NCBI GenBank assembly: GCA_035506275.1 | Contig: DATJPT010000017.1 | Span: 11,831-75,830, forward strand | Length of the DNA stretch: 64,000 bases | From: Bacteroidota bacterium | Lineage (GTDB): Bacteria > Bacteroidota > Ignavibacteria > UBA10030 > UBA8401 | Reading direction: 5' to 3' | Part shown: piece by piece, positions 4,489 to 49,285 of the stretch | How positions within the stretch are numbered: the first letter of the stretch is position 1 | How the letters are laid out: each line of letters starts with the position of its first letter | Notes under the pieces: generated by a model | Database searches by the model: none | Seen by the model: the letters and a program-made list of their open reading frames with translations, nothing else | What the model was told of the DNA's origin: nothing | Position numbers and translations under genes: made by a program

Positions 4489-4505
4489 TAGGAAAGGGTT
4501 TGACG

Positions 4506-33406: not shown

Positions 33407-33441
33407 AAGGGCGATGAGAATATCATCGCCCTTTCTTTTTT
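33407..33441. terminator. bidirectional-looking hairpin terminator between convergent genes
   Basis: gggcgatga-gaata-tcatcgccc followed by tttctttttt. Confidence 0.5.
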
Positions 33442-33459: not shown

Positions 33460-36400
33460 CTAGAAATCTCCTCCGAGCGAGATATAATACAACGGGACGG
33501 AGAACGATTGTCCGTCAAACGCCCAGGCAACGTCGAACTTCAGCGGAAGTCCGAACAAGATGACCCGCACTCCGTACCCGGTGCCCATGAGCAGATCTTC
33601 CGCAATTTCATTCCCCTGGTCGTTCTTAGCAAAGAACCTGTATGCCTTGTCGTCCGTCCAGGACGAACCGATATCGGCGAAGAGCGCTCCGGTAATGTTC
33701 TGCGCGGCGATCGGAAGTCCGCCGGTCACCAGATAACGGATGAGCGGAAAACGGAGTTCGTAGTTCATCAGGGCATATTTCGTGCCGTTCTTCGCATTAT
33801 AGTCAAACCCGCGCATCGGCAGTGCCGGCGACAGGAAGGCGTAATCCTCGACGTTGTTGATCGGAATGCCGCCGTTCGCAAATTCCCGGTTGATCCACCC
33901 GTCCGTCCCGCCGATGAAAAATCTCTGCGCGTTCCTTCCCTCGCTGACCCCTCCGGCCCATCGGATGACGAATGAATAATCTCTCCAGAATTTTTGATAC
34001 GTCCGGTAGTCCAGCGTATAGGTCTGAAAATCGAGCGAGTGGTCCCCGGCTGTCAGCGCCGGGCTGAACATCGCGGTGATATTATAGCGGGTCCCGTTAT
34101 CCGGGGCGGTGATGCCCCACAGCGAGTTATCGTGAACGTAGCTGATCGAGGGCATGATGAGGTTCCGCTCGTCGGTCGGGGCGTTCAGTTCCGGGTCGTC
34201 GAGATTCTGTCTGGAGAGGTTGAGCCATGCCAGGTTGAAATCGAACCGGTTGAATCTATCCAGCGGATATGACGCTGAACTGCCTATTCCCCACGTCTGA
34301 AAGCGGTACAACGAAACGTTTCCCGTCTGATCGTACAGATAGAGGAACCGCGCGCTGTGGAATCCTTCGACCCCGTAATCAACCTTCGTCTTGAGGTAAT
34401 TGTAGGCGATCACGTAATCGCTGTTCTCCAGATCGAGCATCAGGTTCGTGAGAAAATAGATCTGATGGTCGCCGAGCATGTCGCTGAACGCCATCTCGGT
34501 CGTCCCCTCCACTCCATAAAATGTGCTGTACCCGGCGTTGCCGTAAATGATGTCCGGCGAAAAATTAAGCTTGTACTTGTTCACCTTGTAGTTCCCCTGT
34601 TCGTCCACGTTGTCGCTCGGCTCAAGCTGTTTGCCGTTGGATTCCAGGTCGGCCGACGGCATCTTTTCCCTTGGCTGCTCGTCGGAGAAAACGTAATTCT
34701 GGAAGTCGATGTGGACACGGTCGCCGTACACTCCCGCGGTATCCTTGGGGGCCGCGTTTGCCGCTACGTTCGTCGAGTCCTTTGCGCCCTGACCGGTTCC
34801 TTTCTGCGCCAGCTTCATTTTTCTTTTGATGAACTCGGCAGGCTCAAGCTCCGAGACCGCCAATTTCTTGTCAAACGGCGCCTTCATTAAGTAGATGTCG
34901 AATCCCGCTTCGTTCAACGCGGCGAATGAAAGCTTATTGCCGTCCGCCGACAGCGAAAGCTGGAAAAGGCCGCTGATCGAGTTGGTCACAGGACGGTCCG
35001 CGCCGGTGACAAGGTTGCGTTCATAAATATTGCCGATGCCGTTCCGGTCGGAGACATAGAGCAACTTCGTTCCGTCCGGCGAGACGACCGGCGATGTCGC
35101 ATCGCTTCCGTCGTAGTGGATGATACGCTTGATCTCCATCGTCTCGAGGCTCAGCGAATAGATATCCGACTCGGAGAAGTCGTATTTCGACATCTTGAAG
35201 TTCGCCGGAATCGCGTTCCGGTCCAGGTTGTCCCGCCTGTCGGACACGAAATAGATCGTCTTCCCGTCAGGCGACCAGTGCGGGTCGGAATCCGAAAAAA
35301 TATCGTCGGTCAGGTTCGTCAGGTTCTTCGTCGCGAGGTCGTAGAGGTAGATGTCCGATTCCTTGGCATCGTCCCCGACAAAGGCGAGTTTGTCCCCTTT
35401 CGGCGACCAGTCGACGGAAAAAATCCCTTCCAGCTGAAATTGGATCTTTTCCTGATTCCCCGTCGCAGCGTCCACGATGAAAATGGCATCGCTCTCCCCG
35501 CTCTTCACGGCAAGAGCGATCTTCTTCCCGTCGGGAGACCAGGTGATGCCCGGCGTGAGCAGATGCAGTTCCTCAAAATTCTTCGTCCGCTGGCCGTCGA
35601 CGATCTTTGTGACCTTATTGTCGATCGTGGACATAATGTAGACATCGAAATAATCGTCGCGGTCCGAGATGAATGCAACTTTATCCCCTTGCGGCGAAAT
35701 GGAAGGGCTGGTGTTATAGAAGTCGGCTTCCTTCACGTGGTTCGTGAGCCGCGTTGCGAAGTCGGCCGGGTCTTCCCGTTTCGCAATATCGGGCCAATAG
35801 AGAACCTTTTGCTCCTTCTGCCAGCGGTCGTTGAGTTCGGAGACGCTCAGCCCGAGTGCATTCTTAAAGCCCTGGTCGATGCTGCGCGATCCCTTGATCC
35901 GGTTCAGGATCTCCGCGATCTTTTGGTCGCCGTACTTGTTCGCGATGTAATACCAGACCGACTGGCCGCCCCGGTAGGCAAAGTATCCGCTCAAATAATC
36001 GATCGGCGGGAGGTACGTGTGGATCGTCGCATCGCGCATGAACATATCCGAATTCGTATCCCAATGGAGCGATTGGTATTCCGCCATTCCTTCGTTGAAC
36101 CACATGGGCAACTGGAGGCGGATGTTGTTGGAGATGATCGATTGGATCGACCCGCCGTAGAACATATCGTTGAAGACGGCATGAACGAGCTCGTGGTGGA
36201 TCACATGCCGAAACATTTTATAATTGCCTTCGAACGGGACCACCACCCTGTTCTTGAACAGCTCCGTCACACCGCCGATCCCTTCCTCCAGATATTCCCC
36301 CAGGACATTGGTCTGCTGAAAGTCGTTGTGGGAATTATAGACCATGATCGGGATGCGGTTGTTGATCTCGTAATGGAAGCTCTTGCTGATGAGGGTGTAT

Positions 36401-36603
36401 GCCGATTCGGCGGCGGCCGCCGTGAAGTTGGCGAGATATTCTCCGTTGTCGTTGAAATAAATGTCGAAGTGGTTCGATTGGATGTACCACCAGTTGAATT
36501 TTTTGTACTTCACCTTATTTTTACCGAAAACGGCTTCCTGGGCTGTCGACGTTACGGCCCCGACAGCCAGAAGCAGTGCGATGATCAAAAGGCGCAATTT
36601 CAT
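33460..36603 (-). CDS. large outer-membrane protein: N-terminal zincin-like (HExxH) domain, PD40/TolB-type beta-propeller repeats, C-terminal Omp85/BamA-like beta-barrel
   Basis: Signal peptide; HVIHHELVHAV ... NEGMAEY (HExxH+E); repeated SPDG(K/T)K(I/L) ... VSDR PD40 motifs; C-terminal RGFDYN ... ELRFPL ... GALFADIGS ... VAWAFDG ... ISLGGDF (terminal Phe) resembling the Omp85 barrel. Confidence 0.65.
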   Translation of the reverse strand: MKLRLLIIALLLAVGAVTSTAQEAVFGKNKVKYKKFNWWYIQSNHFDIYFNDNGEYLANFTAAAAESAYTLISKSFHYEINNRIPIMVYNSHNDFQQTNVLGEYLEEGIGGVTELFKNRVVVPFEGNYKMFRHVIHHELVHAVFNDMFYGGSIQSIISNNIRLQLPMWFNEGMAEYQSLHWDTNSDMFMRDATIHTYLPPIDYLSGYFAYRGGQSVWYYIANKYGDQKIAEILNRIKGSRSIDQGFKNALGLSVSELNDRWQKEQKVLYWPDIAKREDPADFATRLTNHVKEADFYNTSPSISPQGDKVAFISDRDDYFDVYIMSTIDNKVTKIVDGQRTKNFEELHLLTPGITWSPDGKKIALAVKSGESDAIFIVDAATGNQEKIQFQLEGIFSVDWSPKGDKLAFVGDDAKESDIYLYDLATKNLTNLTDDIFSDSDPHWSPDGKTIYFVSDRRDNLDRNAIPANFKMSKYDFSESDIYSLSLETMEIKRIIHYDGSDATSPVVSPDGTKLLYVSDRNGIGNIYERNLVTGADRPVTNSISGLFQLSLSADGNKLSFAALNEAGFDIYLMKAPFDKKLAVSELEPAEFIKRKMKLAQKGTGQGAKDSTNVAANAAPKDTAGVYGDRVHIDFQNYVFSDEQPREKMPSADLESNGKQLEPSDNVDEQGNYKVNKYKLNFSPDIIYGNAGYSTFYGVEGTTEMAFSDMLGDHQIYFLTNLMLDLENSDYVIAYNYLKTKVDYGVEGFHSARFLYLYDQTGNVSLYRFQTWGIGSSASYPLDRFNRFDFNLAWLNLSRQNLDDPELNAPTDERNLIMPSISYVHDNSLWGITAPDNGTRYNITAMFSPALTAGDHSLDFQTYTLDYRTYQKFWRDYSFVIRWAGGVSEGRNAQRFFIGGTDGWINREFANGGIPINNVEDYAFLSPALPMRGFDYNAKNGTKYALMNYELRFPLIRYLVTGGLPIAAQNITGALFADIGSSWTDDKAYRFFAKNDQGNEIAEDLLMGTGYGVRVILFGLPLKFDVAWAFDGQSFSVPLYYISLGGDF

Positions 36604-36694: not shown

Positions 36695-38866
36695 CTATTT
36701 GTGCTTTCGTCTCTTCTTAGGCTGCGAGGAACGCGCCGGTTCCACGCAGGCAAAATCGATTTCTTTGTTCTCGACGTTTACACTGACAACTTTCACGGCG
36801 ATGCTGTCCCCCAGGCGGAATGTCCGTCCCGTGCGCCGCCCGACCAGCGAATAATGCTTTTCATCGTGTTCATAGTAGTCGTCGCCGATGTTGCGGACAT
36901 GGATCATCCCCTCGACGAGGAGATCGTTGATCTCGACATACATCCCGTAGTTGGTGACGCCCGAGATCACCCCTTCGAATTCGTCGCCAAGATGCTGTTT
37001 CATATATTCCGCCTGCATCACCTTCACGGAGGCCCGCTCGGCTTCCATCGCAACACGCTCCCGGTCGGACGACCACTTGCAGACCCGCGGAAGCGTTTCG
37101 ATGAAATGCTTCCGCCGCGCGTGCGGCATTCCTTTGGCGTATTCATCCAGCATCCTGTGGACAACCAGGTCCGGGTAGCGGCGGATCGGCGAAGTAAAAT
37201 GCGTGTAGTAGTCGAACGCCAGACCGAAATGCCCGATGTTTCTCTCCGAGTATACGGCCTTCGCCATGGCGCGCAGCGAGACTTCGTTGATCACATTCTC
37301 TTCCGGAGTGCCTCTCACGCGGTCCAGGAGTTTCTGCAGATCTTTTGACGAGACAGACTCGCTCACGTTTAATGAATAGCCGAATTTTTCGACGAAGACG
37401 GACAGTTCCCGGATTTTTTCCCTGTCGGGGGAATCATGGATCCGGTAGACGAACGGCGACACATCCTCTTCCTTCTTTTTCTTGCCGACGTGCGCGGCGA
37501 CGGTGTAGTTCGCAAGGAGCATGCATTCTTCGACGAGCTGATGGCTCTTGAGGCGCTGCTTGATACGCACTTCAACGGGCTTCCCCCGGTCGTCATACCG
37601 GAACTTGGCTTCAGGGGAATCGAAGTCGATGCTGCCGTTTTTCATCCTCTTCTCTTTCAACGCGCGCGCCAGAGACCAGAGCGCCTTCAACGCGTCGGCG
37701 TGCTCTCCTTTGCCGGCATCCAATATGTGTTCCACGTCTTCGTACGTAAACCGGCGTTTTGAATTAATCACGCTCTTGACGATCTCATAGTCTTTGACCT
37801 TTCCCTTTTCGCTGACATCCATGATGCACGAATAGGCCAGCCGGTCGACGTTCGGTTTCAGGCTGCACAGGTCGTTGGAGAGTTTTTCGGGAAGCATCGG
37901 CACCACCTGATTCGCGAGGTAAACGCTCGTCCCTCTGTTGAAGGCCTCGGCATCGAGGGCCGTTCCCTCCTTCACATACGCGCTCACATCGGCGATATGA
38001 ACGCCAAGCCGGTACGCCCCCGGCCCCAGCGGTTCGATCGACACAGCATCGTCAAAATCTTTGGCATCGTCCGGGTCGATCGTAAAACACGTCACAGCGC
38101 GGAGGTCGCGGCGGCGTGCGATCTCCTCCTCCGCGATGGTTTCAGCAATGTCCTTTACGAACGATTCGACATCGCGGGGAAAAGAGGTCGGCAGCCGGAA
38201 TGCCTTGATCACCGATGCAACTTCGGCGCCCGAATCCCCCGAACGGCCGATGACCTCGACGATCCGCCCTTCGGGATTCTGAAGATCGCTCTCCCACGAC
38301 TCGAACGCGACAACGACCTTGTCCCCCGGCCGTGCGCCGTTGAGCGCGTCGGGAGCGACATAAATGTCACGCGGAATTTTCCGGTCGTCGATAACGACGA
38401 AATAAAAATTCTTGCTCTGCTCAAGCGTGCCGACGAACTCATCATGGGCGCGAGAGATAACGCGGACAATTTCCCCTTCGATTTTCTCGTCGGCTCTTTT
38501 TTTATTCCGATCAGGCGCAAACAGCGAGACATCGACGGTGTCGCCGTCCAGCGCGGTACCGAGAGATTTCGGCCCGATATAGATTTCGCCGAAGGCGGAC
38601 CCGGGAACCGTGACAAAGCCGTACTTCTGCTTGCTCATCGAGAGCATTCCCCTGACCGTCTGTTCCAACGGCCTGCGGGAATAACCTTTCCCGCGTGAAT
38701 GCGAAAGAACCTTTCTGTCCACCATGGCATGAAGCGCTTCGCGGACCTCCTGGAAACCGCCGTCGTCCCGGATGCTCAGCCTGCGCGCGACCTGGCGGGA
38801 CTTAAATGCTTCGCGCGGATGCGCATCAAAAAAATCGATGACCCGCTGCTCTATGCTGCTCTTCAT
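36695..38866 (-). CDS. rnr: ribonuclease R
   Basis: Cold-shock/OB domains, RNB catalytic domain, C-terminal S1 domain and basic tail; start at ATG 38866 (MKSSIEQRVIDFF). Confidence 0.9.
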   Translation of the reverse strand: MKSSIEQRVIDFFDAHPREAFKSRQVARRLSIRDDGGFQEVREALHAMVDRKVLSHSRGKGYSRRPLEQTVRGMLSMSKQKYGFVTVPGSAFGEIYIGPKSLGTALDGDTVDVSLFAPDRNKKRADEKIEGEIVRVISRAHDEFVGTLEQSKNFYFVVIDDRKIPRDIYVAPDALNGARPGDKVVVAFESWESDLQNPEGRIVEVIGRSGDSGAEVASVIKAFRLPTSFPRDVESFVKDIAETIAEEEIARRRDLRAVTCFTIDPDDAKDFDDAVSIEPLGPGAYRLGVHIADVSAYVKEGTALDAEAFNRGTSVYLANQVVPMLPEKLSNDLCSLKPNVDRLAYSCIMDVSEKGKVKDYEIVKSVINSKRRFTYEDVEHILDAGKGEHADALKALWSLARALKEKRMKNGSIDFDSPEAKFRYDDRGKPVEVRIKQRLKSHQLVEECMLLANYTVAAHVGKKKKEEDVSPFVYRIHDSPDREKIRELSVFVEKFGYSLNVSESVSSKDLQKLLDRVRGTPEENVINEVSLRAMAKAVYSERNIGHFGLAFDYYTHFTSPIRRYPDLVVHRMLDEYAKGMPHARRKHFIETLPRVCKWSSDRERVAMEAERASVKVMQAEYMKQHLGDEFEGVISGVTNYGMYVEINDLLVEGMIHVRNIGDDYYEHDEKHYSLVGRRTGRTFRLGDSIAVKVVSVNVENKEIDFACVEPARSSQPKKRRKHK

Positions 38867-38889
38867 ATTCTCTCTTTCAAAACTCCTGA

Positions 38890-41800
38890 TTAAAAGGCGA
38901 ACTTGTAATACACGCGTGCGCCGTTCGTCGGCCGGCGATAATCCACCGTTTCCAGTGGATCGCTTTTCCGGTCGACCTCGAACATAAAATTCCGCAAATT
39001 GTCGTCCTGGATGATCGAACCGAGCGACCATTGGACGCTGACGTTGGCGTTGTTGATGTCGTTAAAGACCTTCCCTCCGAACGACCAGTACGCGTTCCCG
39101 ACCACACCGCTCAGGCGGAGGTCCGGCGACGTCCCCGAGTACAAAATCTCGACATTGCTCAGCGCCGTGAAGTTGTTGGCGCGGAGGAAGTCCTGCATCA
39201 TCCTTGAGAGCAGTGTATTGGTGAAGCCGGAGATGAGCGACCCGCCGATCGAGCCCCCCAAAGAGTTCGCGATCCCCTGTTTGTCGTTGGACGTCAGGTC
39301 GTCGCGGAATTTTCCGGGGCTTCCCGGCGTCGAGGTCAGCAGGAACGAGATGGCGTCGGACTCGATATCGCCGGTGCGTTCCGTCGGATTGTTGTTGTCG
39401 TCGTACGTTGTCAGCCCGATCTTTATCTTCGGGTCGTACCGTGTGCCGGTAATGGCCAGCGACACGACCACTTTTTCCGTCGCCGGTGCGGCCGCCTCTT
39501 TTTGTTGCTGCTGCGTCGCCGTTTCCGGCTTCAGATGGCTGCCGGTATACGTTGCGGTAATGTCCAACTCCGGGTTATCGGGCCTGCCGGTAAACTTCAG
39601 CGAACCCGATGCATCGAATTGTTTATAGAACTTATAGTTTGACTTATCCGACAGGTTGATCGTTCCCGTCAGCCGCACGTTGCTCTTTTCTTTGCTCAAT
39701 TCCAGCTTACCGTTCAGGTCCGCGAACAGCTCTTCGTTCGTCGACGGGTTGAAGATCATCCTGATCTGCACGATCCCCTGCGTCTGAATCACGATATTGT
39801 AGCCGAGCCCGTCCAAAAAGGACGGGTCGTTGGACGTGTGCACATCTTTTTTGGAACGCAAATACGCGAAGAGCCGTGAACCGACGAGAGAATCGGCCGT
39901 CTGCCTTGACGTATCGTCGACGCTGACAACGTTCACATACCGGGCGGACACAAGGTTTGCCGACTCGCGTGTTGAAGGGAACGTGAGCGCCGCCTGCTTG
40001 ATGTAGATCGCCCCGCTGACCCGTGAATTTTCTGACGTTCCGTCGAACGAAAGACCTTCGTCGCCGGTCGATGCGATGAGGTCGCCGTACACCCCCTGGT
40101 CGCTGCTGCGCGAAGTTTCCTGCAGAACTTTCAATTCTCCCTTGGCCCTCAGATGGTACTCATCGGGAATGAACCCGCGAAGCGAAATGAAGCCGCCGAA
40201 ATCGATCTTGCCGGATGAATAGTCGCCGCTGATATTCTTCGCCGTGAAATTCGTCAGCGAAATTTTACTCCCGTCGAAATCGACCTTCCCCGCGGCCTGG
40301 TACTTCATATTGTTCATGGGAAAGAGGAATTTTGCGTCGCGGAATTCCATCCCCCCGTTGAACGACGGTGCGTCGAGCGACCCGGTGCAGTGCACCGAGC
40401 CCTCCATCGTCCCCTCCATCTCATCGAGCTGGTCGATGAAAGGGTCGATGACGCTGATGTCAAAATTGTGCGCCTTCAGGTACACATCCAGGCCCGTCGC
40501 GGAAAAACGATCGTCGACCGATGCGAACGCAAGGTCAACAGGGATCGACCCGCTGCAGAGCAATTGGAAGTTGTCGCGCCCCTCCGGAGCCTTGGAAAGC
40601 TGGACGGTGCAATCGGCGACCTTGTTTTCGTAGCGGACAGCGCTGTTCACAAACCCGAACTCCGCTCCCCGGTATGCAAAATTCGAAACCCCCAGCTCGC
40701 AGGTGAGAATCGGGTTCTGCATCGGCCCGTTCACCCTGCCGCTGGCGTTCACTGTCCCGCCGAACGCGATCGCGTTGGACTTGAAATTCTGAGATCTTCC
40801 GAAGTGATAGATATTCGACAGCGTAAAATTCTGGAGACGGACAAACGCCGTGATGTCCCCCCCGTAACCGATCGAGCCGCCGAAAGCGAGCTGCTCGTCC
40901 TGATGAGTAAACAGCGTCGAATCGACATCGATGCCGGACCTGCTCACCCGTGCGGAAAACTGCTGCGCGTTGTCGAGCTCGTACCCCTGATAACTGAAAG
41001 AAAAAGTGTCGAACGTAAAATCGTACTGGTCCGGAGCAACCTGCGCGCGCCCTTCGACAGCGAATTTCATGGTGCTGTCGATGTCGCTTTGGACGGAATA
41101 TTCCGCATGGCGGTCGTGGAGACTGACGTCGACCGCTGCATTCCGGAAATACGAATCGCCGACAAAGAGGTTCCCCGCGTTCGCCCGCACATGGACTGCG
41201 GGGCTGTTGACAGGAGCGAGAAGATTATCCGCCGCCGCGTGTTCAACGCTGAAGTCCAACGATCCGTTTTCCACGATCAGGTAGCCGCCGGCCGTCGAGT
41301 ACTTCGCCGACGCGATCGCGACCGTTCCTTCCGCCGAAAGAGTGTCCGCGCTGCCGCGGAGCGATCCGCTGACATTGCCGGCGGCGTTAAAGATATTGGT
41401 CCCGAAAAATACCGCCACGGGCTCCAGATTCTTCAGATGGAACGAATACTGAAGAGCGCACTCGCGGGAAGGAGGATCGGCAACGGCTGGGTCCAGGTTC
41501 TCACCGCCGCTCGTTTCCGCAGCGGCAAAGGAGGTATCGAAAAGCGCCCGCTGCTTCTCATATTCCCGCTGGAAATGCCGGGCATGCGACCTCACTAAAT
41601 CGACGACGCCAGCGTACGTGAAGCTGCCGTCGACGGACGCATCGGCGATCGGCGATGCAAAGCGAATAGATTTCTTCCCCGTCGAATCGACTCCGACATG
41701 GAGTTCGGCCCGGACACTGTCAAACGCGTATGACTCGAACCGGGAGCCTGAAAAGCTGATGAGCAGATCGCCGGCCATATCTTCGCGCAGAAAATTCCTT

Positions 41801-43443
41801 CCGTCGGCCTTCAATGAGAATGAACAGTCGGAATCATAGTGATCGTCATGCAGGAGCGTCGAAAAATCAAAATGAGAGAAGGTTCCCGCAAGTGCGTACG
41901 ACGGCGCGGAGGCAGAGTTGTAATCCAATCCGGCCTGGAGGTCGGCAGTCCCTCTCGGGAATTGAATCAGGGCAGAGCAGGCAATGTTCCGGTCCGAAGC
42001 GGTGATATCCATCCGAAGGTGAGAGAATGAGATCTTGTTGAACGTTGACGAATCGACGGTCACCGACGCTTTCGAGTTCAATTCTTCGACCGAAGTTCCT
42101 TCCCCTTCCACTGTCCCCGAAAAATCGAGATGAGAAGAGAGCGATGGATCAGAGAAGAATTTCCCCAGGTTGACGCCGCTTCCGCCGAACGCCGCTTTGT
42201 ATTTCATCGTTGCGCCCGTAAGGTCCAGGCCGCCGTCCACCGAAACTCGCCCGGCGTCCATCGACGCGGCGGCGGTGACTTGGAAATCGAGCGGCTTACC
42301 GACATAATGAAAATCGACCGCGAGCTGCCCCGCACCGCCGAAGTCGGGAATATGAAAGAACGGAAGAAGCTCGGGAACATCAGAGGGGAAGATCGACGTC
42401 CCCTTCGACTCAATATTCAACGTGAGGTCGCCGGGGCGATGAAGGTTGAAGACCCCTCCCTCCAGGTTAATGACCGAGCGGCTGAATGCGGCGTGGAGTT
42501 TTTTCACTTTCAGGCTCCCGAATTCTCCTTCGGTCCTGCATTCCACCTGGACCGTACCACGGAGAAAATCGAGCGACGGAAGAAACCGCTGCAGGTCCTC
42601 GGCGGCCACGGTGCTCGGCAGCAGAGAACATTCAACCGGAACGAACTGAAGGGCGGCGATATCATTGATCTTCAGCGCATCGGCGGAACTCATCCTTGCC
42701 GAGAGTTCAACGCGCGAACGGGGCGTAACGATGAGAAGATTTTTGACCTCTGAAAGAACTGCGTTATGCCGGATGTCGGCCGAAAAATGAGCAAGCGTAA
42801 AGCCTTCGCGCGGCGCGGTGAATGAAATATTCTTGATGGATGCGCTCTGTTCCTTTTCTGCGACCGACGCCGAGAGTTCAACATTGAGCTTGTCGATATC
42901 CAGGTTGGAAAAATTGAACGTCCGCCGGGCTATCGAATCCGGAAGGCTCCCCGCCGCAAGGGATGTTGAATCGATAAGTCGAAAATGCGCGTTGTTGATG
43001 CGGAGGTTTTTAACGGTCACCAGCCAAGGAGAAGGAGCCGTGTCGGGCTCCGCTTTCTTCTTGGCGAGTTTGTCGACGTTCCAGGTCCCGTCGGAAAAAC
43101 GGACGAGAGAAATGGACGGGTTATCAATTTCTATGCTTCCGAGAGAAATGTGCTTATTCCACAGGGGGATCGGGTCGTAGCGGACCACTGCTTTGCTTGC
43201 TTCGACGAACGGAGCGTTATCGATGTAGACGGCAACCGTGTCGATAGAAATCCCCGTAAAAAGATTCCCCTTGATTTCTCCGAGATAAACCGACGCGTTG
43301 AGGTTTGCATCGAGCACCTTATAGATCGTCGAGCGCAGCGTCTGCTTGAAGAGCGGAGTCTGCGTAAAGCCGGCCGCAGCAAACAAGAGGGCCACAACGG
43401 AAATTCCGGCGTAGGTCAATATTTTCGATGTTGTACGGATCAC
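38890..43443 (-). CDS. tamB: translocation and assembly module subunit TamB (AsmA-like/DUF490)
   Basis: About 1500 aa, single N-terminal TM anchor, beta-rich repetitive body, C-terminal DUF490-like end ...GARVYYKFAF; GTG start at 43443 overlapping the upstream stop. Confidence 0.8.
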   Translation of the reverse strand: MIRTTSKILTYAGISVVALLFAAAGFTQTPLFKQTLRSTIYKVLDANLNASVYLGEIKGNLFTGISIDTVAVYIDNAPFVEASKAVVRYDPIPLWNKHISLGSIEIDNPSISLVRFSDGTWNVDKLAKKKAEPDTAPSPWLVTVKNLRINNAHFRLIDSTSLAAGSLPDSIARRTFNFSNLDIDKLNVELSASVAEKEQSASIKNISFTAPREGFTLAHFSADIRHNAVLSEVKNLLIVTPRSRVELSARMSSADALKINDIAALQFVPVECSLLPSTVAAEDLQRFLPSLDFLRGTVQVECRTEGEFGSLKVKKLHAAFSRSVINLEGGVFNLHRPGDLTLNIESKGTSIFPSDVPELLPFFHIPDFGGAGQLAVDFHYVGKPLDFQVTAAASMDAGRVSVDGGLDLTGATMKYKAAFGGSGVNLGKFFSDPSLSSHLDFSGTVEGEGTSVEELNSKASVTVDSSTFNKISFSHLRMDITASDRNIACSALIQFPRGTADLQAGLDYNSASAPSYALAGTFSHFDFSTLLHDDHYDSDCSFSLKADGRNFLREDMAGDLLISFSGSRFESYAFDSVRAELHVGVDSTGKKSIRFASPIADASVDGSFTYAGVVDLVRSHARHFQREYEKQRALFDTSFAAAETSGGENLDPAVADPPSRECALQYSFHLKNLEPVAVFFGTNIFNAAGNVSGSLRGSADTLSAEGTVAIASAKYSTAGGYLIVENGSLDFSVEHAAADNLLAPVNSPAVHVRANAGNLFVGDSYFRNAAVDVSLHDRHAEYSVQSDIDSTMKFAVEGRAQVAPDQYDFTFDTFSFSYQGYELDNAQQFSARVSRSGIDVDSTLFTHQDEQLAFGGSIGYGGDITAFVRLQNFTLSNIYHFGRSQNFKSNAIAFGGTVNASGRVNGPMQNPILTCELGVSNFAYRGAEFGFVNSAVRYENKVADCTVQLSKAPEGRDNFQLLCSGSIPVDLAFASVDDRFSATGLDVYLKAHNFDISVIDPFIDQLDEMEGTMEGSVHCTGSLDAPSFNGGMEFRDAKFLFPMNNMKYQAAGKVDFDGSKISLTNFTAKNISGDYSSGKIDFGGFISLRGFIPDEYHLRAKGELKVLQETSRSSDQGVYGDLIASTGDEGLSFDGTSENSRVSGAIYIKQAALTFPSTRESANLVSARYVNVVSVDDTSRQTADSLVGSRLFAYLRSKKDVHTSNDPSFLDGLGYNIVIQTQGIVQIRMIFNPSTNEELFADLNGKLELSKEKSNVRLTGTINLSDKSNYKFYKQFDASGSLKFTGRPDNPELDITATYTGSHLKPETATQQQQKEAAAPATEKVVVSLAITGTRYDPKIKIGLTTYDDNNNPTERTGDIESDAISFLLTSTPGSPGKFRDDLTSNDKQGIANSLGGSIGGSLISGFTNTLLSRMMQDFLRANNFTALSNVEILYSGTSPDLRLSGVVGNAYWSFGGKVFNDINNANVSVQWSLGSIIQDDNLRNFMFEVDRKSDPLETVDYRRPTNGARVYYKFAF

Positions 43444-43934
43444 GTGGTTTTTCCGCTGACCGAGTATAGTTCCTTGATTCGTTCGATCACCAGGGTCGTT
43501 GAACGATCCGGGATGAACGGAATGGTGAGGACTTTTCCCCCCGATCTTTCGACAACATCTTTTCCCACAACGTCGTCGATCTTCCAATCGGCCCCTTTGA
43601 CCAGAATGTCGGGGACCAGAGCGCTGATCGTTTCATACGGAGTTTCCTGGCCGAAGATGCATACGGCGTCCACGGCCTTCAACTGAGACACGAGATATGC
43701 GCGGTCCTCTTCGCCGACGACGGGACGGCGCGGTCCCTTGATTTTTTTGACCGACGCGTCGCTGTTGACCCCGACGATCAGCGCATCGCCGAGAGAACGC
43801 GAAGCGGCGAGATACTCGACATGGCCGCGGTGCAAAATATCGAAGACCCCGTTCGTAAAGACGACCTTCTTCCCCTCCTTTTTCCAACGAAGACGAACGT
43901 CGATCAATTCAGCGAGTGAGAAGACTGTTCCCAT
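43440..43934 (-). CDS. hldE: D-glycero-beta-D-manno-heptose 1-phosphate adenylyltransferase (RfaE/HldE domain II, stand-alone)
   Basis: Cytidylyltransferase-fold motif VVFTNGVFDILHRGHVEYL (HxGH); 164 aa. Confidence 0.8.
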   Translation of the reverse strand: MGTVFSLAELIDVRLRWKKEGKKVVFTNGVFDILHRGHVEYLAASRSLGDALIVGVNSDASVKKIKGPRRPVVGEEDRAYLVSQLKAVDAVCIFGQETPYETISALVPDILVKGADWKIDDVVGKDVVERSGGKVLTIPFIPDRSTTLVIERIKELYSVSGKTT

Positions 43935-43961
43935 GGCAATTTCGAAAAATCTATTCGAACG

Positions 43962-44957
43962 TTAAGACTGGAAGGAAAGAACTCTTGCGAGCAGCGCATC
44001 AGGAAGTATTGGGACGATGCCGACCTCGCCGCACACGACGCCGCCGGCAAAATTGGCAAGGCTTGCCGATTCGTAGATTGACGCGCCCGACGCCATCGCC
44101 ATCGTGAGCGTGGCGATCACCGTATCGCCGGCGCCGGAGACGTCGGCGACATGCTGCGCCCGCGTCGGCAAATGGAGCAGGGAGCCCTTATCATCCAGCA
44201 AACTCATCCCTTGTTCTCCGCGCGTGATCAGGATATTTTCTGCATTCAATTTTTCCTTCAACGCGCCGATGGCTTCGCGAAGGCTCTCGTCGGTGGCCAA
44301 CTTCATGCCCAGCGCTTCCTCGACCTCTTTTCTGTTCGGCTTAAACACCGAGGCATTTTTGTATTCGAAGAAGTTTTGGAACTTGGGGTCGACGGTGACA
44401 ATTTTCCTCTGACCGCGCGCCATCTCAATGATGTGATGGATCAAGGAGGCGGTGATGACCCCTTTGTTGTAGTCTTCGAGGATGATGCCGTCCAAGCTGG
44501 CAATGCTGTTCCGCAGAATCGAGAGGATCTGCTCCTGCACCGACGGGGAAATATCCCGTTTTTGTTCGTTATCGATCCTGACGACATGCTGGCCATGAGC
44601 AATGACGCGTGTTTTCACCGTCGTAGGCCGTGAAGGATCTTTTACGATCCCGCTTATTGGACAATTCTGCCCGGCGAGAAGTTTTGTCAGCAAATCGCCG
44701 TCGGCATCATCGCCGACAACGCCGACGAGGACCGGCTCCCCCCCCAGGGATTTGATATTATTGGCCACATTGGCGGCCCCGCCAAGCCGTTCGGTTTCCT
44801 TCTCCACCTCCACGATAGGAACCGGAGCCTCGGGGGAAATCCGGCCGACGGATCCCCAGAGATACTTGTCCACCATGACATCGCCGATAACGGCAATGCG
44901 CTTGTTTTTGAATTTTGAAAGAAGCTCTTTAAGCCGCGTTTCGGAAAACGTGACCAC
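43962..44957 (-). CDS. hldE: D-glycero-beta-D-manno-heptose 7-phosphate kinase (RfaE/HldE domain I, stand-alone; PfkB family)
   Basis: RIAVIGDVMVDKYLWG ... GGAANVA ... DVSGAGDT PfkB motifs; no ATG upstream of the domain, so GTG 44957 is proposed as start. Confidence 0.7.
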   Translation of the reverse strand: MVTFSETRLKELLSKFKNKRIAVIGDVMVDKYLWGSVGRISPEAPVPIVEVEKETERLGGAANVANNIKSLGGEPVLVGVVGDDADGDLLTKLLAGQNCPISGIVKDPSRPTTVKTRVIAHGQHVVRIDNEQKRDISPSVQEQILSILRNSIASLDGIILEDYNKGVITASLIHHIIEMARGQRKIVTVDPKFQNFFEYKNASVFKPNRKEVEEALGMKLATDESLREAIGALKEKLNAENILITRGEQGMSLLDDKGSLLHLPTRAQHVADVSGAGDTVIATLTMAMASGASIYESASLANFAGGVVCGEVGIVPILPDALLARVLSFQS

Positions 44958-45029
44958 GTTGACTTTTACGTAAGTAATTGAAACAGTTATAGATAGCGAA
45001 ATATAGCACTTTGGTGGGCGACAATCAAT

Positions 45030-45068
45030 AAAAAAGGCTGCCTCGGAGGTCCGAAGCAGCCTTTTTTG
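45030..45068 (-). terminator. rho-independent terminator downstream of the cytochrome gene
   Basis: aaaaaaggctgcctcggaggtccgaagcagcctttttt, a hairpin flanked by A- and T-runs. Confidence 0.5.
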
Positions 45069-45091
45069 GCCAGTGTACGCTGAATCCGATC

Positions 45092-47218
45092 TTACTTCAT
45101 CATTAACATCTTCTTCGTCACGATGTAATTTGGCGCTCCGTTGGATTGGGCAACCAGTCTGTAGAAGTAAATGCCGCTCGAGACTGTTGCACCGTGATTG
45201 TTCGTTCCGTTCCACGTCACTTTGTAATGGCCGGAGACGATGTCGCCGCTGACGAGGGTCTTGACAAGTTCGCCAAGAATATTGTAGACGTTCAACTGAA
45301 TCGTCGCAGAACGCGGAACAGAGAACTCGATGTTCGTCGACGGGTTGAACGGGTTCGGATAGTTCTGGCTGATCTCGTACGACGTCGGAGTCTTTTGGCT
45401 CACAACCTCAACGCCGGTCGGATAGAATCCGAGGGCCTTTTGCAGAAGGGCGACGGCGTACTTCGCATTGTGGACGCCCATGCTGCCGTCGTTCGTTACA
45501 AACGAATAGGTGTAAATACCCTGAACGAGATCGGGCCGGTTCTTTACCTTAAGGCTGTCCTTGATCGCCAGGGTCGGCTCGCCTGTCAGGCTGTCGATTG
45601 GCAGTCTGGCTTTGAGAAGAGCCAGGAGGCCGGCGACTTCGGTCTGCACGCCTTCGATTTTTCCGTTGCGGTCGTAGTCGTAGCTCGCTTTGACGTCGTC
45701 AAACGATTGGATTCCGGACCCATGGCAGGTCTGGCATGCTTCGGTATGGTCGTGCATAACGCCTGTACCGACCGTGTCCGACATCGATAATTGATGCTGT
45801 CCGCTGCCGTGCATATGGCATGTAACGCAGGCATCCGGAACGCCGGCATGAGTCATTAATCCGGTGAGGCTGCTGTCGCCGTACTGGTACGCATTCTGAC
45901 CGAAGAACATATCGGCTTGCGGATTACCGTGCGGGCCATAATGGTCAGCGAAACCGTAATACGGAGCTTTGGTCGTCACTTTTGTTGCAACGTTGTACCG
46001 CGACCGGTGGCAGTTCATGCAAAGCTGGCCAAGGCCGCCGATTCCAGCCGGGACGACATAACCGTTCCGCAGTGTATCGACGCTGACCGTTCTCAACTGA
46101 TTCGGGTTCGCTGCGCTGTGCGGATCATGGCAGACTGCGCAAGTGATAGGATAGCTAGCATCGCTTGAACTCCACGTGGACGCTGATGCCGGCTTTCCAG
46201 CAACAACCCATTTCTCGAATGCGCTTCCGCTGTGGCAGGGGAAGCAGCTCGTAGACGTTGCGACCTTGCCGGCAAGCGGCATTGTCGCATGATCCGATAG
46301 TGACCAATACGTGCCGGAGACATGGTGGGGGGGCGCATCGTGACATGACTGACACAAGCCTGCATCAAGAGAGAGGCCGATTTTTGAGATGTCGCCGTTG
46401 TGATCTTTGCCCGGGCCGTGGCAGCTTTCGCAGCCGATGCTCGCCAGCGGGAGCAGCGACGAATAATTCGCCGCCATGTTTTTATAGATTGAAGAATCGC
46501 CGTTGAAGATCAGATAACTGCTGCCGGATTTTGTCTTTCCCTTAAACGCCGTCGTGTCCCATCCAAGCGAATGGGCCATGTATCCGAAATTTCCGTCATT
46601 TGCCGAGAGGTCGTAGCCCGTCGTATGGCATTTCCAGCAACTGGCGGAGTACGATCCTTGACCGTATGCGTTGACTTCCAACTCTCCCATTATTCCCTGT
46701 GTGTAGATCTTAGCATGCCCCGTTCCCTGCCAATCGCTGTAATTCGCCGCGTGGCATTCACCGCAATACAAACCTGATGTATTCGGGTTCCCAAGGAACG
46801 TGCTCACAAAGAAAGTGTCCTGGTCGGTGCTTGTGCCGCCGTTCACAGACACATTCACTATGTATTGACCGGCCGAGTCTGCCGTGAAACTCTGACGCGG
46901 ATTGTTCCCGGCGCTGTCGAATGACGCGTTCGATCCTGTCGGCTTCGCGGCAAACGTCCACGTGAACGACGTTACAACCGTTGTTCCGGATCCGGTGGTA
47001 TCGGCAAATAAATATGCGCGCGCTCCTTTGCCGATCACCTTAAGGCCTGTTGTGGCAGTGTAGCTGCTCTTTCCGATCGCCGCCAGCTTTCCCGGGGACA
47101 TTGGTACAACCGTGAGCTTCACCGTCTGCGCCACCGCTCCTGAATATACGAGGCCAAGTAGGCATCCGGCAAGCAACCCTCTCAAAATATTAGCAAATCT
47201 GTTCATTGTATTCTCCAT
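45092..47218 (-). CDS. nonaheme c-type cytochrome with N-terminal Ig/FN3-like domain and a T9SS C-terminal sorting domain
   Basis: Signal peptide; nine CxxCH motifs (CGECH, CWKCH, CESCH, CQSCH, CFPCH, CAVCH, CMNCH, CVTCH, CQTCH); C-terminus NYPNPFNPSTNIEFSVP ... YFYRL ... TKKMLMMK. Confidence 0.8.
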   Translation of the reverse strand: MENTMNRFANILRGLLAGCLLGLVYSGAVAQTVKLTVVPMSPGKLAAIGKSSYTATTGLKVIGKGARAYLFADTTGSGTTVVTSFTWTFAAKPTGSNASFDSAGNNPRQSFTADSAGQYIVNVSVNGGTSTDQDTFFVSTFLGNPNTSGLYCGECHAANYSDWQGTGHAKIYTQGIMGELEVNAYGQGSYSASCWKCHTTGYDLSANDGNFGYMAHSLGWDTTAFKGKTKSGSSYLIFNGDSSIYKNMAANYSSLLPLASIGCESCHGPGKDHNGDISKIGLSLDAGLCQSCHDAPPHHVSGTYWSLSDHATMPLAGKVATSTSCFPCHSGSAFEKWVVAGKPASASTWSSSDASYPITCAVCHDPHSAANPNQLRTVSVDTLRNGYVVPAGIGGLGQLCMNCHRSRYNVATKVTTKAPYYGFADHYGPHGNPQADMFFGQNAYQYGDSSLTGLMTHAGVPDACVTCHMHGSGQHQLSMSDTVGTGVMHDHTEACQTCHGSGIQSFDDVKASYDYDRNGKIEGVQTEVAGLLALLKARLPIDSLTGEPTLAIKDSLKVKNRPDLVQGIYTYSFVTNDGSMGVHNAKYAVALLQKALGFYPTGVEVVSQKTPTSYEISQNYPNPFNPSTNIEFSVPRSATIQLNVYNILGELVKTLVSGDIVSGHYKVTWNGTNNHGATVSSGIYFYRLVAQSNGAPNYIVTKKMLMMK

Positions 47219-47592: not shown

Positions 47593-49050
47593 TCAGAACC
47601 TGTACGAAATAGTGAAGTCGACGTTCGTTGTCGAAACGGTCTCGTCTGTCCGCGAGAGGTTAAGCGATTCATCGCCGTAGTTGTTATGGAAGTTCTTGAA
47701 CGATCCGAACATCGCCGCTGCATCGATCATCACATTATCCTCGATCAAAATCCCGGCGCCGGCAGTAATGGTGGTCAGACCGAACGTCGACGGATCGCCG
47801 GCATACGGCGAGGGCTTGAAGGAATAGCCCGCCCGCAGCCGCACATCTGTTTTGGGGATCTCGAACTCGCCGCCAACAGCATAATTAAGCGTCGAACGAA
47901 ACTGCTGTTTTAACGCAATGTTTTCGTTCTCCAGATCGGCGTTGTCGGTCCACTGAAGCTGCGTCCAATCGGTATATTCAACTTGCCCGGAGAGAAGAAG
48001 ACCGCGCACCGGCGAATACGAAGCACCGGCCCCGAACACCCAGGGAGTTGTTATGCCATAGTCGTTGTTCGCGTCGTATGAATAGTAGTACCCTGTCGTA
48101 TCATCGAACGCGCTTTGTCCGGCGTTCGTATATGTTTCATGAACGGTGAACGCCGTCGGAGTTTTGATCGTGATGCCGAAACGGGCAATATCTTCGTACC
48201 GGTACATAAACCCGAACATCGCGTTGACGCCGTTCAAATCGCTCGTCAGCGTGCTGTTGTAGTTGAACGCATTGAATTCCCGGTAGAGGGAATCGGGAAG
48301 AACATATCCGTCCGCATCGTAGAAACGGGTCGGATCATTGTAGACGTTATTGACGTCCGATTCGTTGTAGTTCCTGACATAATTGTATGTTCCGTTGAGG
48401 AGGTTGATCGTCACACCGAAAGAAAAATCCTTCGCGAGATCGACGGCCCCGGAGAATGCCCACGTGCCCATGCTGCCGCTTTCGCTGACATTTCCTTGCT
48501 GCTGGACATTTTTCTGGATCGGAGTGTAGCCGTCCGAATTTTCAAGATACGTTTGAAAGGGGATGTCAAAATTTGCATCCGCATCGTACAGCCACGGGAT
48601 GATCGAGCTCTTCGCGTTGAAGCCGTTGAACGAAAGCGCGGTTGCATAATTATTCACTCTGTTGTAACCGACGGCAAAGACCAGGCTCCCGCGCGAGGTC
48701 GGAACGGGGAACACGAGCCCCAGATCGTCAAGGTTGGTGGCGCTGTTGCTGGCCGACGACGACGTTCCCAAAAACGTTGCGCTGTTCGAATAGTTGGTAT
48801 TGACAATGCCGCCGGTGAACTCTAGTCTCCTCATCTGAGCCAGGCCTGCCGGGTTCCAGAACGTTGCGCTGTAATCATCGGCTACGCCGATGTATGCGCC
48901 GCCCATGCCTTCCGCCCGTGCACCGACTCCGAATCCCGTGGATGAAAAACGGTATGCATCCTCAGCAGACTGGGCACGAAGATAAGAGATATTCAGCATG
49001 ATCAGTCCGAACAATAAAATGAACAAAGTGACACAGCGATTATTTTTCAT
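47593..49050 (-). CDS. FadL/TodX-family-like outer-membrane beta-barrel protein (possibly PorV-type)
   Basis: Signal peptide; N-terminal GFGVGARAEGMGGAYIGVADDYSATFWNPAGLA block resembling the FadL N-terminal hatch motif (G.GRA.SG.GA.ADDAS..NPA); alternating beta-strand pattern; C-terminal ...FTISYRF; GGAGG RBS at the 49050 start. Confidence 0.6.
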   Translation of the reverse strand: MKNNRCVTLFILLFGLIMLNISYLRAQSAEDAYRFSSTGFGVGARAEGMGGAYIGVADDYSATFWNPAGLAQMRRLEFTGGIVNTNYSNSATFLGTSSSASNSATNLDDLGLVFPVPTSRGSLVFAVGYNRVNNYATALSFNGFNAKSSIIPWLYDADANFDIPFQTYLENSDGYTPIQKNVQQQGNVSESGSMGTWAFSGAVDLAKDFSFGVTINLLNGTYNYVRNYNESDVNNVYNDPTRFYDADGYVLPDSLYREFNAFNYNSTLTSDLNGVNAMFGFMYRYEDIARFGITIKTPTAFTVHETYTNAGQSAFDDTTGYYYSYDANNDYGITTPWVFGAGASYSPVRGLLLSGQVEYTDWTQLQWTDNADLENENIALKQQFRSTLNYAVGGEFEIPKTDVRLRAGYSFKPSPYAGDPSTFGLTTITAGAGILIEDNVMIDAAAMFGSFKNFHNNYGDESLNLSRTDETVSTTNVDFTISYRF

Positions 49051-49285
49051 AGGTATCCTCCGCTTCCACTCCCATCCGTCTCCGCGATTCGGCCGGTTAT
49101 CCGTTCGGCAGGTTATCGATACAACTGAGGTTCGACCCGTTGCCCTGCTGCAGCCGGCAGACACACCGTTTGCTTTAACAATCGAGCAGCCGGAGGGGGG
49201 GTGCAGGTGTTGTCGTGATTATGGTGAATGTTAGACAATTAATATGCTAAAAACTTCTTGACCGTAGTGTCGGGAGAAATCTCTC

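Follow-up and report, generated by a model that had tools for sequence, protein, structure and literature searches.

What kind of protein is encoded at positions 33460-36603 of the window (the whole stretch of 64,000 nucleotides that was analyzed), and what might it do in the cell? An earlier note had proposed that an unusual fusion of a zincin, PD40/TolB propellers and an Omp85-like barrel, lacking POTRA domains, is encoded here. The ORF exists and lies on the minus strand, where a single reading frame with an ATG start encodes 1047 aa followed by a stop codon. Full-length homologues share 59-89% identity with this protein. Its three domains, a zinc peptidase, a single TolB-like propeller and an Omp85 (BamA/TamA-type) barrel, are real, and their combination in one POTRA-less protein was borne out by Pfam scans, AF2 models and Foldseek. 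The features are as follows, in order along the protein.

33460..36603, minus strand: complete ORF of a WD40-Omp85 family protein (ORF reading; full-length homologues)
36541..36603, minus strand: predicted signal peptide, residues 1-21, MKLRLLIIALLLAVGAVTSTA (sequence; helix 2-18 in the model; region poorly conserved)
35749..36531, minus strand: zincin (Peptidase_MA_2) domain, residues 25-285 (PF13485; conservation)
36181..36195, minus strand: HELVH zinc-binding/catalytic motif with H137, E138 and H141 (invariance in homologues)
36076..36102, minus strand: WFNEGMAEY motif, with E171 as the proposed third zinc ligand (invariant residues)
34873..35718, minus strand: single six-bladed PD40/TolB-like beta-propeller, residues ~296-577 (PD40, TolB, Foldseek, model)
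34564..34872, minus strand: variable, predicted-disordered linker with one short helix, residues 578-680 (pLDDT, alignment)
33463..34563, minus strand: 16-stranded Omp85-type beta-barrel, residues 681-1047, ~367 aa (PF01103, AF2, Foldseek)
33805..33816, minus strand: MRGF, a loop-6 (V/I)RG(F/Y)-type motif, residues 930-933 (conservation; loop of the model)
33667..33681, minus strand: FADIG, a strand-13 FxDxG motif, residues 975-979 (conservation; strand of the model)

All the motifs that had been quoted were found: HVIHHELVHAV, NEGMAEY, the PD40 blades, RGFDYN, ELRFPL, GALFADIGS and the terminal GGDF. HELVH falls at residues 137-141, NEGMAEY at 170-176, RGFDYN at 931-936 and FADIG at 975-979.

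Domains of the 1047-aa protein

The signal-peptide region is not conserved (22% identity in the alignment), and we infer the position of its cleavage site from an S-T-A pattern. The signal peptide contains no Cys, which rules out a lipoprotein. The full-length AF2 model reached a pTM of 0.58, so the geometry between the domains is only moderately confident.

The full-length Pfam scan matched Peptidase_MA_2 (PF13485) with E=2.8e-13 and 50.6 bits compared to a cutoff of 32.4 bits. The match rose to E=1.7e-14 when the zincin domain was scanned alone, and PF13485 was found in 42/42 diverse family members. The N-terminal protease-like domain of the earlier note is therefore present, but it spans approximately residues 25-285 rather than 180 aa. 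H137, E138, H141 and E171 were invariant in the alignments of close (62/62) and diverse (42/42) homologues, and the claim of an HExxH region with a catalytic Glu and a third zinc ligand withstood this test. W168, G172 and E175 were likewise invariant in both alignments. HExxH was kept in 76/81 distant full-length representatives and missing in 5/81, and some of the WD40-Omp85 members without it may not be enzymes.

With its HExxH and downstream third-ligand Glu, the domain is of the gluzincin (MA clan) type, and zinc binding and catalysis are predicted from these residues. The WFNEGMAEY motif resembles the gluzincin/M1 motif WxNEGxAxY. M1 enzymes have an HExxH-x18-E spacing; here, 29 residues separate H141 from E171. 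The M1 family model, PF01433, gave no match at E<=1 in the full-length Pfam scan. An invariant G111-V-T-E114 precedes H137 by 23 residues, at the place where the exopeptidase motif GxMEN would be, and its equivalence to GxMEN is unproven. A relation to the thermolysin (M4) domain that is encoded at 4500-7640 was tried with hhalign, which aligned only the HExxH helix with 1.5% probability, and the subtype was therefore left at the level of Peptidase_MA_2. A zincin-only profile found no match among PDB sequences, i.e., sequence comparison detects no relative with a solved structure. Conservation is highest in the zincin, with a mean identity of 66%, whereas the propeller and the barrel show 52-53%. 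The zincin is also the part most fixed in length (260-262 aa across aligned members), and both observations speak for catalysis as the selected function.

The PD40/TolB blades of the earlier note were also recovered, but they form one six-bladed propeller of ~280 aa and not several propellers over ~450 aa. Its blades start near residues 303, 356, 400, 444, 508 and 552. PD40 (PF07676) was matched with E=6.4e-25 in the full-length Pfam scan. The TolB model matched across the propeller portion only, with E=1.1e-46 and 159.6 bits compared to the 343.15 cutoff of TIGR02800. The propeller has 22-24 strands in the full-length AF2 model, and in Foldseek it matched 1crz with E=2.6e-12. Searches of PDB sequences, run with both the protein and the family profile, matched propellers, TolB among them, and no barrel or zincin. 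Sequence and structure matches taken together relate the propeller to those of TolB, tricorn and S9 peptidases.

Between the propeller and the barrel lies a linker of ~100 aa (578-680) with a pLDDT below 50 in the full-length AF2 model. It shows 26% identity, 0 invariant columns and a length of 85-140 aa among aligned members. A segment this disordered and variable fits the role of a tether. No POTRA domain was matched by Pfam in the 1047-aa protein or in the 42 diverse members, and the proposed absence of POTRA was upheld by this result and by the disordered linker in their place. Subfamilies without POTRA (WD40, Metallo, noNterm) count as members of the Omp85 superfamily (PMC4104836).

PF01103 (Omp85) was missing from the full-length Pfam results at E<=1, and full-length scans of diverse members reported it in only 4/42. 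When residues 661-1047 were scanned alone, PF01103 matched with E=1.5e-14 and 54.7 bits compared to a 24-bit cutoff; the miss in the full-length scans was a filtering effect. The barrel-only AF2 model has 16 strands, a pLDDT of 80.9 and a pTM of 0.76, and its top 50 Foldseek matches in the PDB were all BamA or TamA (E 1e-12 to 8e-11, TM 0.51-0.65). Strand 16 is short, as in BamA/TamA. R931 and G932 are invariant, position 933 is F or Y, and this motif lies within a long loop between strands 11 and 12 of the model. F975, D977 and G979 are invariant or nearly so, within strand 13 (970-982 in the model). The terminal Phe is conserved. We take the loop-6 RG(F/Y) and FxDxG to be hallmark motifs of Omp85 proteins. 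Residues 681-1047 are a true Omp85 fold. The Omp85/BamA-type C-terminus could not be refuted by domain scanning, and only its size required correction, from ~330 aa to ~367 aa. Among Omp85-subfamily models, TamL was the most frequent, matching the barrels of 30/42 members. The scores of the protein compared to the equivalog cutoffs were 19.9 bits versus 400 for TamL, 16.8 versus 625 for TamA and 12.2 versus 1050 for BamA.

Contrary to the earlier note, the fusion is not unusual. Heinz and Lithgow (2014, Front Microbiol 5:370, PMC4104836) defined a WD40-Omp85 ("WD40-like") subfamily of the Omp85/TpsB superfamily, found in Bacteroidetes/Chlorobi/Ignavibacteria and other phyla. Their Table S2 gives its architectures as PF01103+PF07676xN. 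Their Table S3 lists Phyre2 matches of members to BamA/TamA for the barrel, TolB for the propeller and M1-type aminopeptidases for the N-terminus, with confidences of 98.7-99.4 for most members in the column "best aminopeptidase hit". A 2024 paper speaks of this architecture as an Omp85 subfamily marked by "divergent WD40 and peptidase domains" (PMC11358297). The 1047-aa protein has a PD40 propeller N-terminal to an Omp85 barrel, no POTRA and an N-terminal gluzincin-like domain, and was assigned to WD40-Omp85 from the published table descriptions of the subfamily. Full-length relatives were found in at least 574 species genomes. The architecture was already catalogued in 2014 and is common in Ignavibacteria/Bacteroidota, and this kind of protein is not new.

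A periplasmic peptidase as the proposed role

Our main reading, to which we give a probability of about 0.5, is that the protein is a periplasmic metallopeptidase tethered to the outer membrane, with a propeller that binds or gates unfolded peptide substrates. What the analysis shows is which domains are present, how their motifs are conserved, the fold of the barrel, the lack of POTRA and how the family is distributed; we infer the topology, activity, substrates and propeller role. The protein would be exported by Sec, and the C-terminal Phe beta-signal would let BAM insert its barrel. The 16-stranded barrel would then sit in the outer membrane, mainly as an anchor and localizer, while the flexible tether of ~100 residues would keep the zincin-propeller module in the periplasm, like the N-terminal domains of Omp85 proteins. 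There, the propeller could bind or gate unfolded or extended polypeptides, a task that propellers perform in TolB, tricorn and S9 peptidases. The zincin, with its catalytic residues intact, could cleave the polypeptide presented by the propeller, which would make the module an envelope peptidase at the inner face of the outer membrane. Most plausibly, it would turn over envelope proteins and peptides or control their quality.

The earlier note had suggested a surface or periplasm-spanning machine for peptide processing or capture rather than an insertase. The processing or capture part is plausible and close to our main reading. Less likely is the other part, exposure of the zincin-propeller at the surface, since Omp85 topology puts N-terminal domains in the periplasm and the enzyme domain of PlpD, another Omp85 fusion, was shown experimentally to be exclusively periplasmic (PMC11116518).

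The strict conservation of the loop-6 RGF and FxDxG exceeds what a passive anchor would seem to need and, therefore, the barrel may do something active. Another possible reading is that the protein assists the assembly or quality control of outer membrane proteins, with BAM or like it: the barrel seam would engage nascent or stalled barrels, the propeller would act like BamB, and the zincin would degrade stalled clients like BepA. The two conserved barrel motifs and the short strand 16 would fit such a factor, as would the published idea of a "BamA-BamB fusion", put forward by Heinz and Lithgow (PMC4104836), and the policing of BAM substrates by zinc metalloproteases such as BepA (PMC13067283). 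However, the POTRA domains, with which BamA/TamA handle substrates, are absent, and the propeller is of the six-bladed TolB/PD40 type whereas the BamB type has eight blades (PMC11358297). Also, no linkage of bam genes to the WD40-Omp85 gene was seen in any locus examined. We consider this explanation unlikely as a whole; nascent or stalled barrels overlap with the periplasmic peptidase reading as one possible class of its substrates.

Gene neighborhood and candidate partners

Three features flank the gene.

36695..39031, minus strand: RNase R, first upstream neighbor (TIGR02063, 800.9 bits compared to a cutoff of 597.85)
38890..43587, minus strand: TamB-like AsmA/DUF748 protein, second upstream neighbor, ~1500 aa, exact start uncertain (PF05359/PF05170)
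33407..33433, no strand assigned: bidirectional terminator-like hairpin between the WD40-Omp85 gene and the convergent amino-acid permease gene (consensus scan only)

The WD40-Omp85 gene probably ends its transcription unit, as judged from the hairpin. Downstream, a two-component system is kept in 14-15/85 loci and the amino-acid permease in 10/85, in both cases in close relatives only. The permease would suit another reading, in which the barrel moves the zincin-propeller to the surface through the long linker, in the style first proposed for type Vd secretion, and the exposed protease digests external proteins for nutrition. The long flexible linker does separate the passenger-like domains from the barrel, and the organism is proteolytic, with secreted M4 and C25 peptidases that carry T9SS tails. 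However, a folded six-bladed propeller plus a zincin of 260 aa would be a poor passenger for a closed 16-stranded barrel, and the prototype, PlpD, retains its enzyme domain in the periplasm (PMC11116518). The surface enzymes of this organism use T9SS C-terminal domains, which the WD40-Omp85 protein lacks. The linkage to the permease is weak, and the two genes converge. These points make a self-exporting surface protease highly improbable.

Upstream, the RNase R gene is 91 bp away and has the same orientation, and the consensus scan found no terminator-like site in the gap. Among the 74 loci whose flank reached at least 2.6 kb, RNase R was the immediate upstream neighbor in 55. The next protein was matched by the NCBIfam TamB model with E=8.7e-24, below its cutoff. 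Of the 58 loci whose flank reached at least 7.5 kb, 41 kept the order TamB-like gene, RNase R gene, WD40-Omp85 gene on one strand, and the order held even where the TamB-like proteins were only 21-24% identical to the copy in the window. The order was missing in 16/58 loci. A conserved operon partner was sought in these 16, and the neighbors were unrelated (TolC-like OEP, MacB, RpoC, M3 oligopeptidase, TPR, MBL). Outside one clade, the WD40-Omp85 gene usually has no dedicated operon partner, which is consistent with a self-contained enzyme.

This linkage raises the possibility that the protein is an analogue of TamA/TamL: its barrel would serve as the docking site for the C-terminus of the TamB-like bridge protein, and its propeller-peptidase would stand in for the POTRA domains. 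The conserved order despite low TamB-like identity, the lack of a terminator-like site after RNase R and the frequency of TamL as the best-represented subfamily model on the barrels all point this way, and no TamL or TamA gene adjoins the TamB-like gene in the window. On the other hand, the unrelated RNase R gene always intervenes and the barrel protein has no POTRA domains. Since the linkage is missing in 16/58 loci, it may also reflect inherited gene order within Ignavibacteria. TamL of Bacteroidota copurifies with TamB, and tamL and tamB normally do not share an operon (PMC12045153), which leaves a TamL from another locus as the default partner of TamB. We regard the TamA/TamL analogue as quite unlikely. 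The TamB-like gene is a possible but unproven functional link of the WD40-Omp85 gene. It is very doubtful that, in the Ignavibacteria-type lineage, the two proteins are coupled, with the WD40-Omp85 protein as an outer membrane dock or as a protease that processes arriving cargo or lipoproteins. If true, this coupling would be a previously unrecognized TAM-like trans-envelope module with a zincin-propeller in place of POTRA domains.

Comparison with known systems

WD40-Omp85 is one of ten recognized Omp85 subfamilies, and our literature searches found no functional study of any member. As the architecture was already catalogued, the value of this analysis lies in confirmation and refinement. 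It adds that the catalytic site is invariant, that the zincin is the most conserved module, that the tether is disordered and that the gene travels with a TamB-like gene in many Ignavibacteria. These additions provide concrete hypotheses for a first study of the family in a cultivable member such as Ignavibacterium album, Melioribacter roseus or Rhodothermus marinus.

The protein is identical in architecture to the published WD40-Omp85 subfamily (PMC4104836), and nothing architectural differs. What is new is a sequence from an uncultured Ignavibacteria/Bacteroidota-type genome, together with the peptidase active site, the linker and the TamB synteny, which that paper does not discuss. Like BamA, TamA and TamL, the protein has a 16-stranded barrel, the L6 RG(F/Y), the strand-13 FxDxG and a C-terminal aromatic residue. 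In contrast to them, it has no POTRA and no lipobox, its N-terminus consists of a peptidase and a propeller, and its scores fall far below their equivalog cutoffs.

The six-bladed PD40 propeller resembles that of TolB in the Tol-Pal system and the propellers of tricorn and S9 peptidases. Unlike TolB, the protein has no N-terminal alpha/beta domain of the TolB kind, scores below the equivalog cutoff and uses the propeller as one domain of a membrane protein. Its zincin shares the HExxH and the downstream Glu in a WxNEGxAxY-type motif with Peptidase_MA_2 (PF13485) gluzincins and the M1 catalytic domain, but the protein has neither the N-terminal beta domain nor the C-terminal ARM domain that M1 enzymes possess. 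Finally, PlpD of Pseudomonas aeruginosa also has a hydrolytic enzyme domain N-terminal to an Omp85 barrel. PlpD combines a patatin lipase with one POTRA and forms homodimers, whereas the present protein has a zincin, an added propeller and no POTRA. As with PlpD, the Omp85 barrel would be reused here as a scaffold for a periplasmic enzyme.

Domains of the WD40-Omp85 protein

The gene is a single open reading frame with an ATG start, and every motif quoted in the earlier note was found in its 1047-aa translation.

Features of the WD40-Omp85 gene and its protein
33460-36603, minus strand, WD40-Omp85 gene, 1047 aa
Residues 1-21, signal peptide without a cysteine
Residues about 25-285, zincin domain
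Residues about 296-577, one six-bladed PD40/TolB-type propeller (blades starting near 303, 356, 400, 444, 508 and 552)
Residues 578-680, linker, predicted to be disordered (pLDDT <50)
Residues 681-1047, 16-stranded barrel (barrel-only model, pLDDT 80.9, pTM 0.76)

Since no cysteine lies within the signal peptide, the protein is not a lipoprotein. The N-terminal zincin domain read by the earlier note was borne out by a match to Peptidase_MA_2 (Pfam) above the gathering score (50.6 bits for the whole protein, 54.5 bits with the domain alone) and by invariant active-site motifs. HELVH (H137, E138, H141) and residues W168, E171, G172 and E175 of WFNEGMAEY were invariant in 62 close homologues (59-89% identity) and in 42 more diverse ones taken from genomes (47-63%). 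The zincin was also the most conserved, length-fixed module, with 66% identity compared to 52-53% for the other folded domains. Judged from sequence, its active site is intact and strongly conserved.

The propeller is TolB/tricorn/S9-like, and TolB resembles it both by sequence and by structure (1crz, E=2.6e-12). Several propellers over 450 aa, as originally described, was an overestimate. The absence of POTRA domains was read correctly: residues 578-680 are a flexible tether, with a mean identity of 26%, zero invariant columns and a length of 85 to 140 aa across homologues.

The C-terminus is a bona fide Omp85 barrel, as the earlier note had proposed. When scanned alone, the C-terminal 387 aa matched Pfam Omp85 (PF01103) at E=1.5e-14, with 54.7 bits against a 24-bit cutoff, and the 50 best Foldseek matches of the barrel in the PDB were without exception BamA or TamA, with E-values from 1e-12 to 8e-11 and TM scores of at most 0.65. 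The signature motifs are also in place. MRGF, in which R931 and G932 are invariant, sits in the long loop that joins strands 11 and 12. FADIG lies on strand 13, with F975, D977 and G979 conserved, and the C-terminal residue is Phe. No Omp85 match at E<=1 was obtained with the full-length protein (hmmscan, Pfam), and full-length scans gave a PF01103 match in only 4 of the 42 diverse family members. This invisibility probably explains why many database names for the family mention only "PD40" or "Tol". Among the NCBIfam Omp85 models, TamL matched the barrels of 30 of 42 members, Omp85_fam 11, BamA 7-8 and TamA 5, all with scores far under the equivalog cutoffs.

Distribution of the family

Of 8000 candidates scored in a word-indexed protein search with the target, 6945 were matches. 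The top 120 were without exception nearly full-length (905-1109 aa), had 59-89% identity and came mostly from Bacteroidota/Ignavibacteria MAGs, with names that included "biopolymer transporter Tol", "PD40 domain-containing protein", "peptidase MA family metallohydrolase" and "BamA/TamA family outer membrane protein". Relatives are encoded in at least 574 genomes, scanned with one genome per GTDB species; the best 80 came from Ignavibacteria/Ignavibacteriales, "Bacteroidota", Melioribacter, Candidatus Chrysopegis kryptomonas and Chloroherpetonaceae.

When the barrel by itself was searched exhaustively with HMMER, 205 representatives of 50%-identity clusters matched at E<=1e-30, a number that rose to 1083 at E<=1e-10. 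Among the best 150, 81 were at least 930 aa long with a C-terminal barrel; 76 of these had an HExxH motif towards the N-terminus and 69 a terminal Phe. Nine distant representatives (barrel identity 31-34%) matched PD40 in eight cases, Peptidase_MA_2 in five and Omp85 in six. Five of the 81 (P0182, P0201, P0203, P0248 and P0261) kept the propeller and barrel with no HExxH in the N-terminal 420 residues, and by sequence these may be pseudo-peptidase members.

Gene neighborhood

Downstream of the target lies a bidirectional terminator-like hairpin (33407-33433), followed by a convergent amino-acid permease gene. The upstream genes form a string at 36695-45215.

Genes upstream of the target
36695-39031, minus strand, RNase R, separated from the target by a 91-bp gap without a terminator-like site
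38890-43587, minus strand, TamB-like AsmA/DUF748 protein of about 1500 aa, upstream of RNase R
43962-45215, minus strand, PfkB/HldE-like kinase, upstream of the TamB-like gene

The order of kinase, TamB-like gene, RNase R and WD40-Omp85 gene recurs in many Ignavibacteria-type genomes (among the related loci L001 and L005-L085). Of the 74 loci with 2.6 kb or more of upstream sequence, 55 had RNase R directly upstream of the target, and of the 58 with 7.5 kb or more, 41 had the TamB-like gene, RNase R and target in order. The order persists down to 47-50% target identity, a level at which the TamB-like proteins share only 21-24% identity with the copy in the window. Sixteen loci lack it and have unrelated neighbors. 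TamL copurifies with TamB in Bacteroidota, where tamL and tamB usually belong to separate operons (PMC12045153; PMC4494059). The linkage is a lead, not evidence of partnership, and a function as a TamB partner is improbable. The constant position of RNase R between two envelope genes in the conserved string is odd.

Other genes in the window
919-2352, plus strand, C25 gingipain-like peptidase, 477 aa, T9SS C-terminal sorting domain
4500-7640, plus strand, M4 thermolysin-like protein, 1046 aa, FTP propeptide, T9SS C-terminal sorting domain
9144-13721, plus strand, Lhr-type large helicase, 1525 aa, DEAD, Lhr winged-helix and AlkZ-like glycosylase domains
13814-14770, plus strand, prokaryotic inward-rectifier (Kir/KirBac-like) potassium channel homologue, IRK and IRK_C domains
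45092-47218 and 47593-49164, minus strand, adjoining multihaem c-type cytochrome and FadL/TodX-type outer-membrane channel

The organism is a T9SS-bearing FCB-group bacterium. Por_Secre_tail domains were found on the M4 peptidase, the C25 peptidase and the cytochrome, and the two tailed peptidases show that it uses the T9SS for surface and secreted proteases. The cytochrome, with MtrC/MtrF-like domains and several CXXCH families, may be exported by the T9SS and act in extracellular electron transfer. The same cytochrome gene was seen at the edge of two related loci, L001 and L002.

Proposed activity and known Omp85 proteins

Omp85 topology, together with the demonstrated periplasmic location of the PlpD enzyme domain (PMC11116518), places the zincin-propeller module putatively in the periplasm; that the protein is a self-exported surface protease is very improbable. 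The propeller would bind or gate extended polypeptides, and the zincin would cleave them at the outer membrane's inner face. We give this model a probability of about 0.5. A role in OMP quality control or assembly at the lateral seam is unlikely as a separate explanation, and it overlaps the cleavage model as a substrate class.

The fusion is real yet already catalogued. The earlier note's observation stands, apart from minor corrections, and its interpretation is borne out in part: the domain reading is correct, and the claim of an unusual architecture is not supported. WD40-Omp85 is among the ten subfamilies of the Omp85/TpsB superfamily, with PF01103 + PF07676xN architectures in Table S2 (Heinz and Lithgow 2014; PMC4104836). 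Table S3 of that study lists members that include H1XQ58, D0MEQ5, D5CSQ4, J1SNQ0 and A9FGN9, with Phyre2 matches to BamA/TamA (4k3b/4c00) and TolB (2w8b/2ivz) and a "best aminopeptidase hit" of 1z5h, 4kxd, 4fgm or 3qnf at about 99% confidence. A 2024 paper describes an Omp85 subfamily having "divergent WD40 and peptidase domains" (PMC11358297). No experimental study of the subfamily was found in the literature. The remaining interest lies in its unexplored function and in the synteny with TamB; the only functional proposal found in the literature is that of a BamA-BamB-like fusion platform (PMC4104836).
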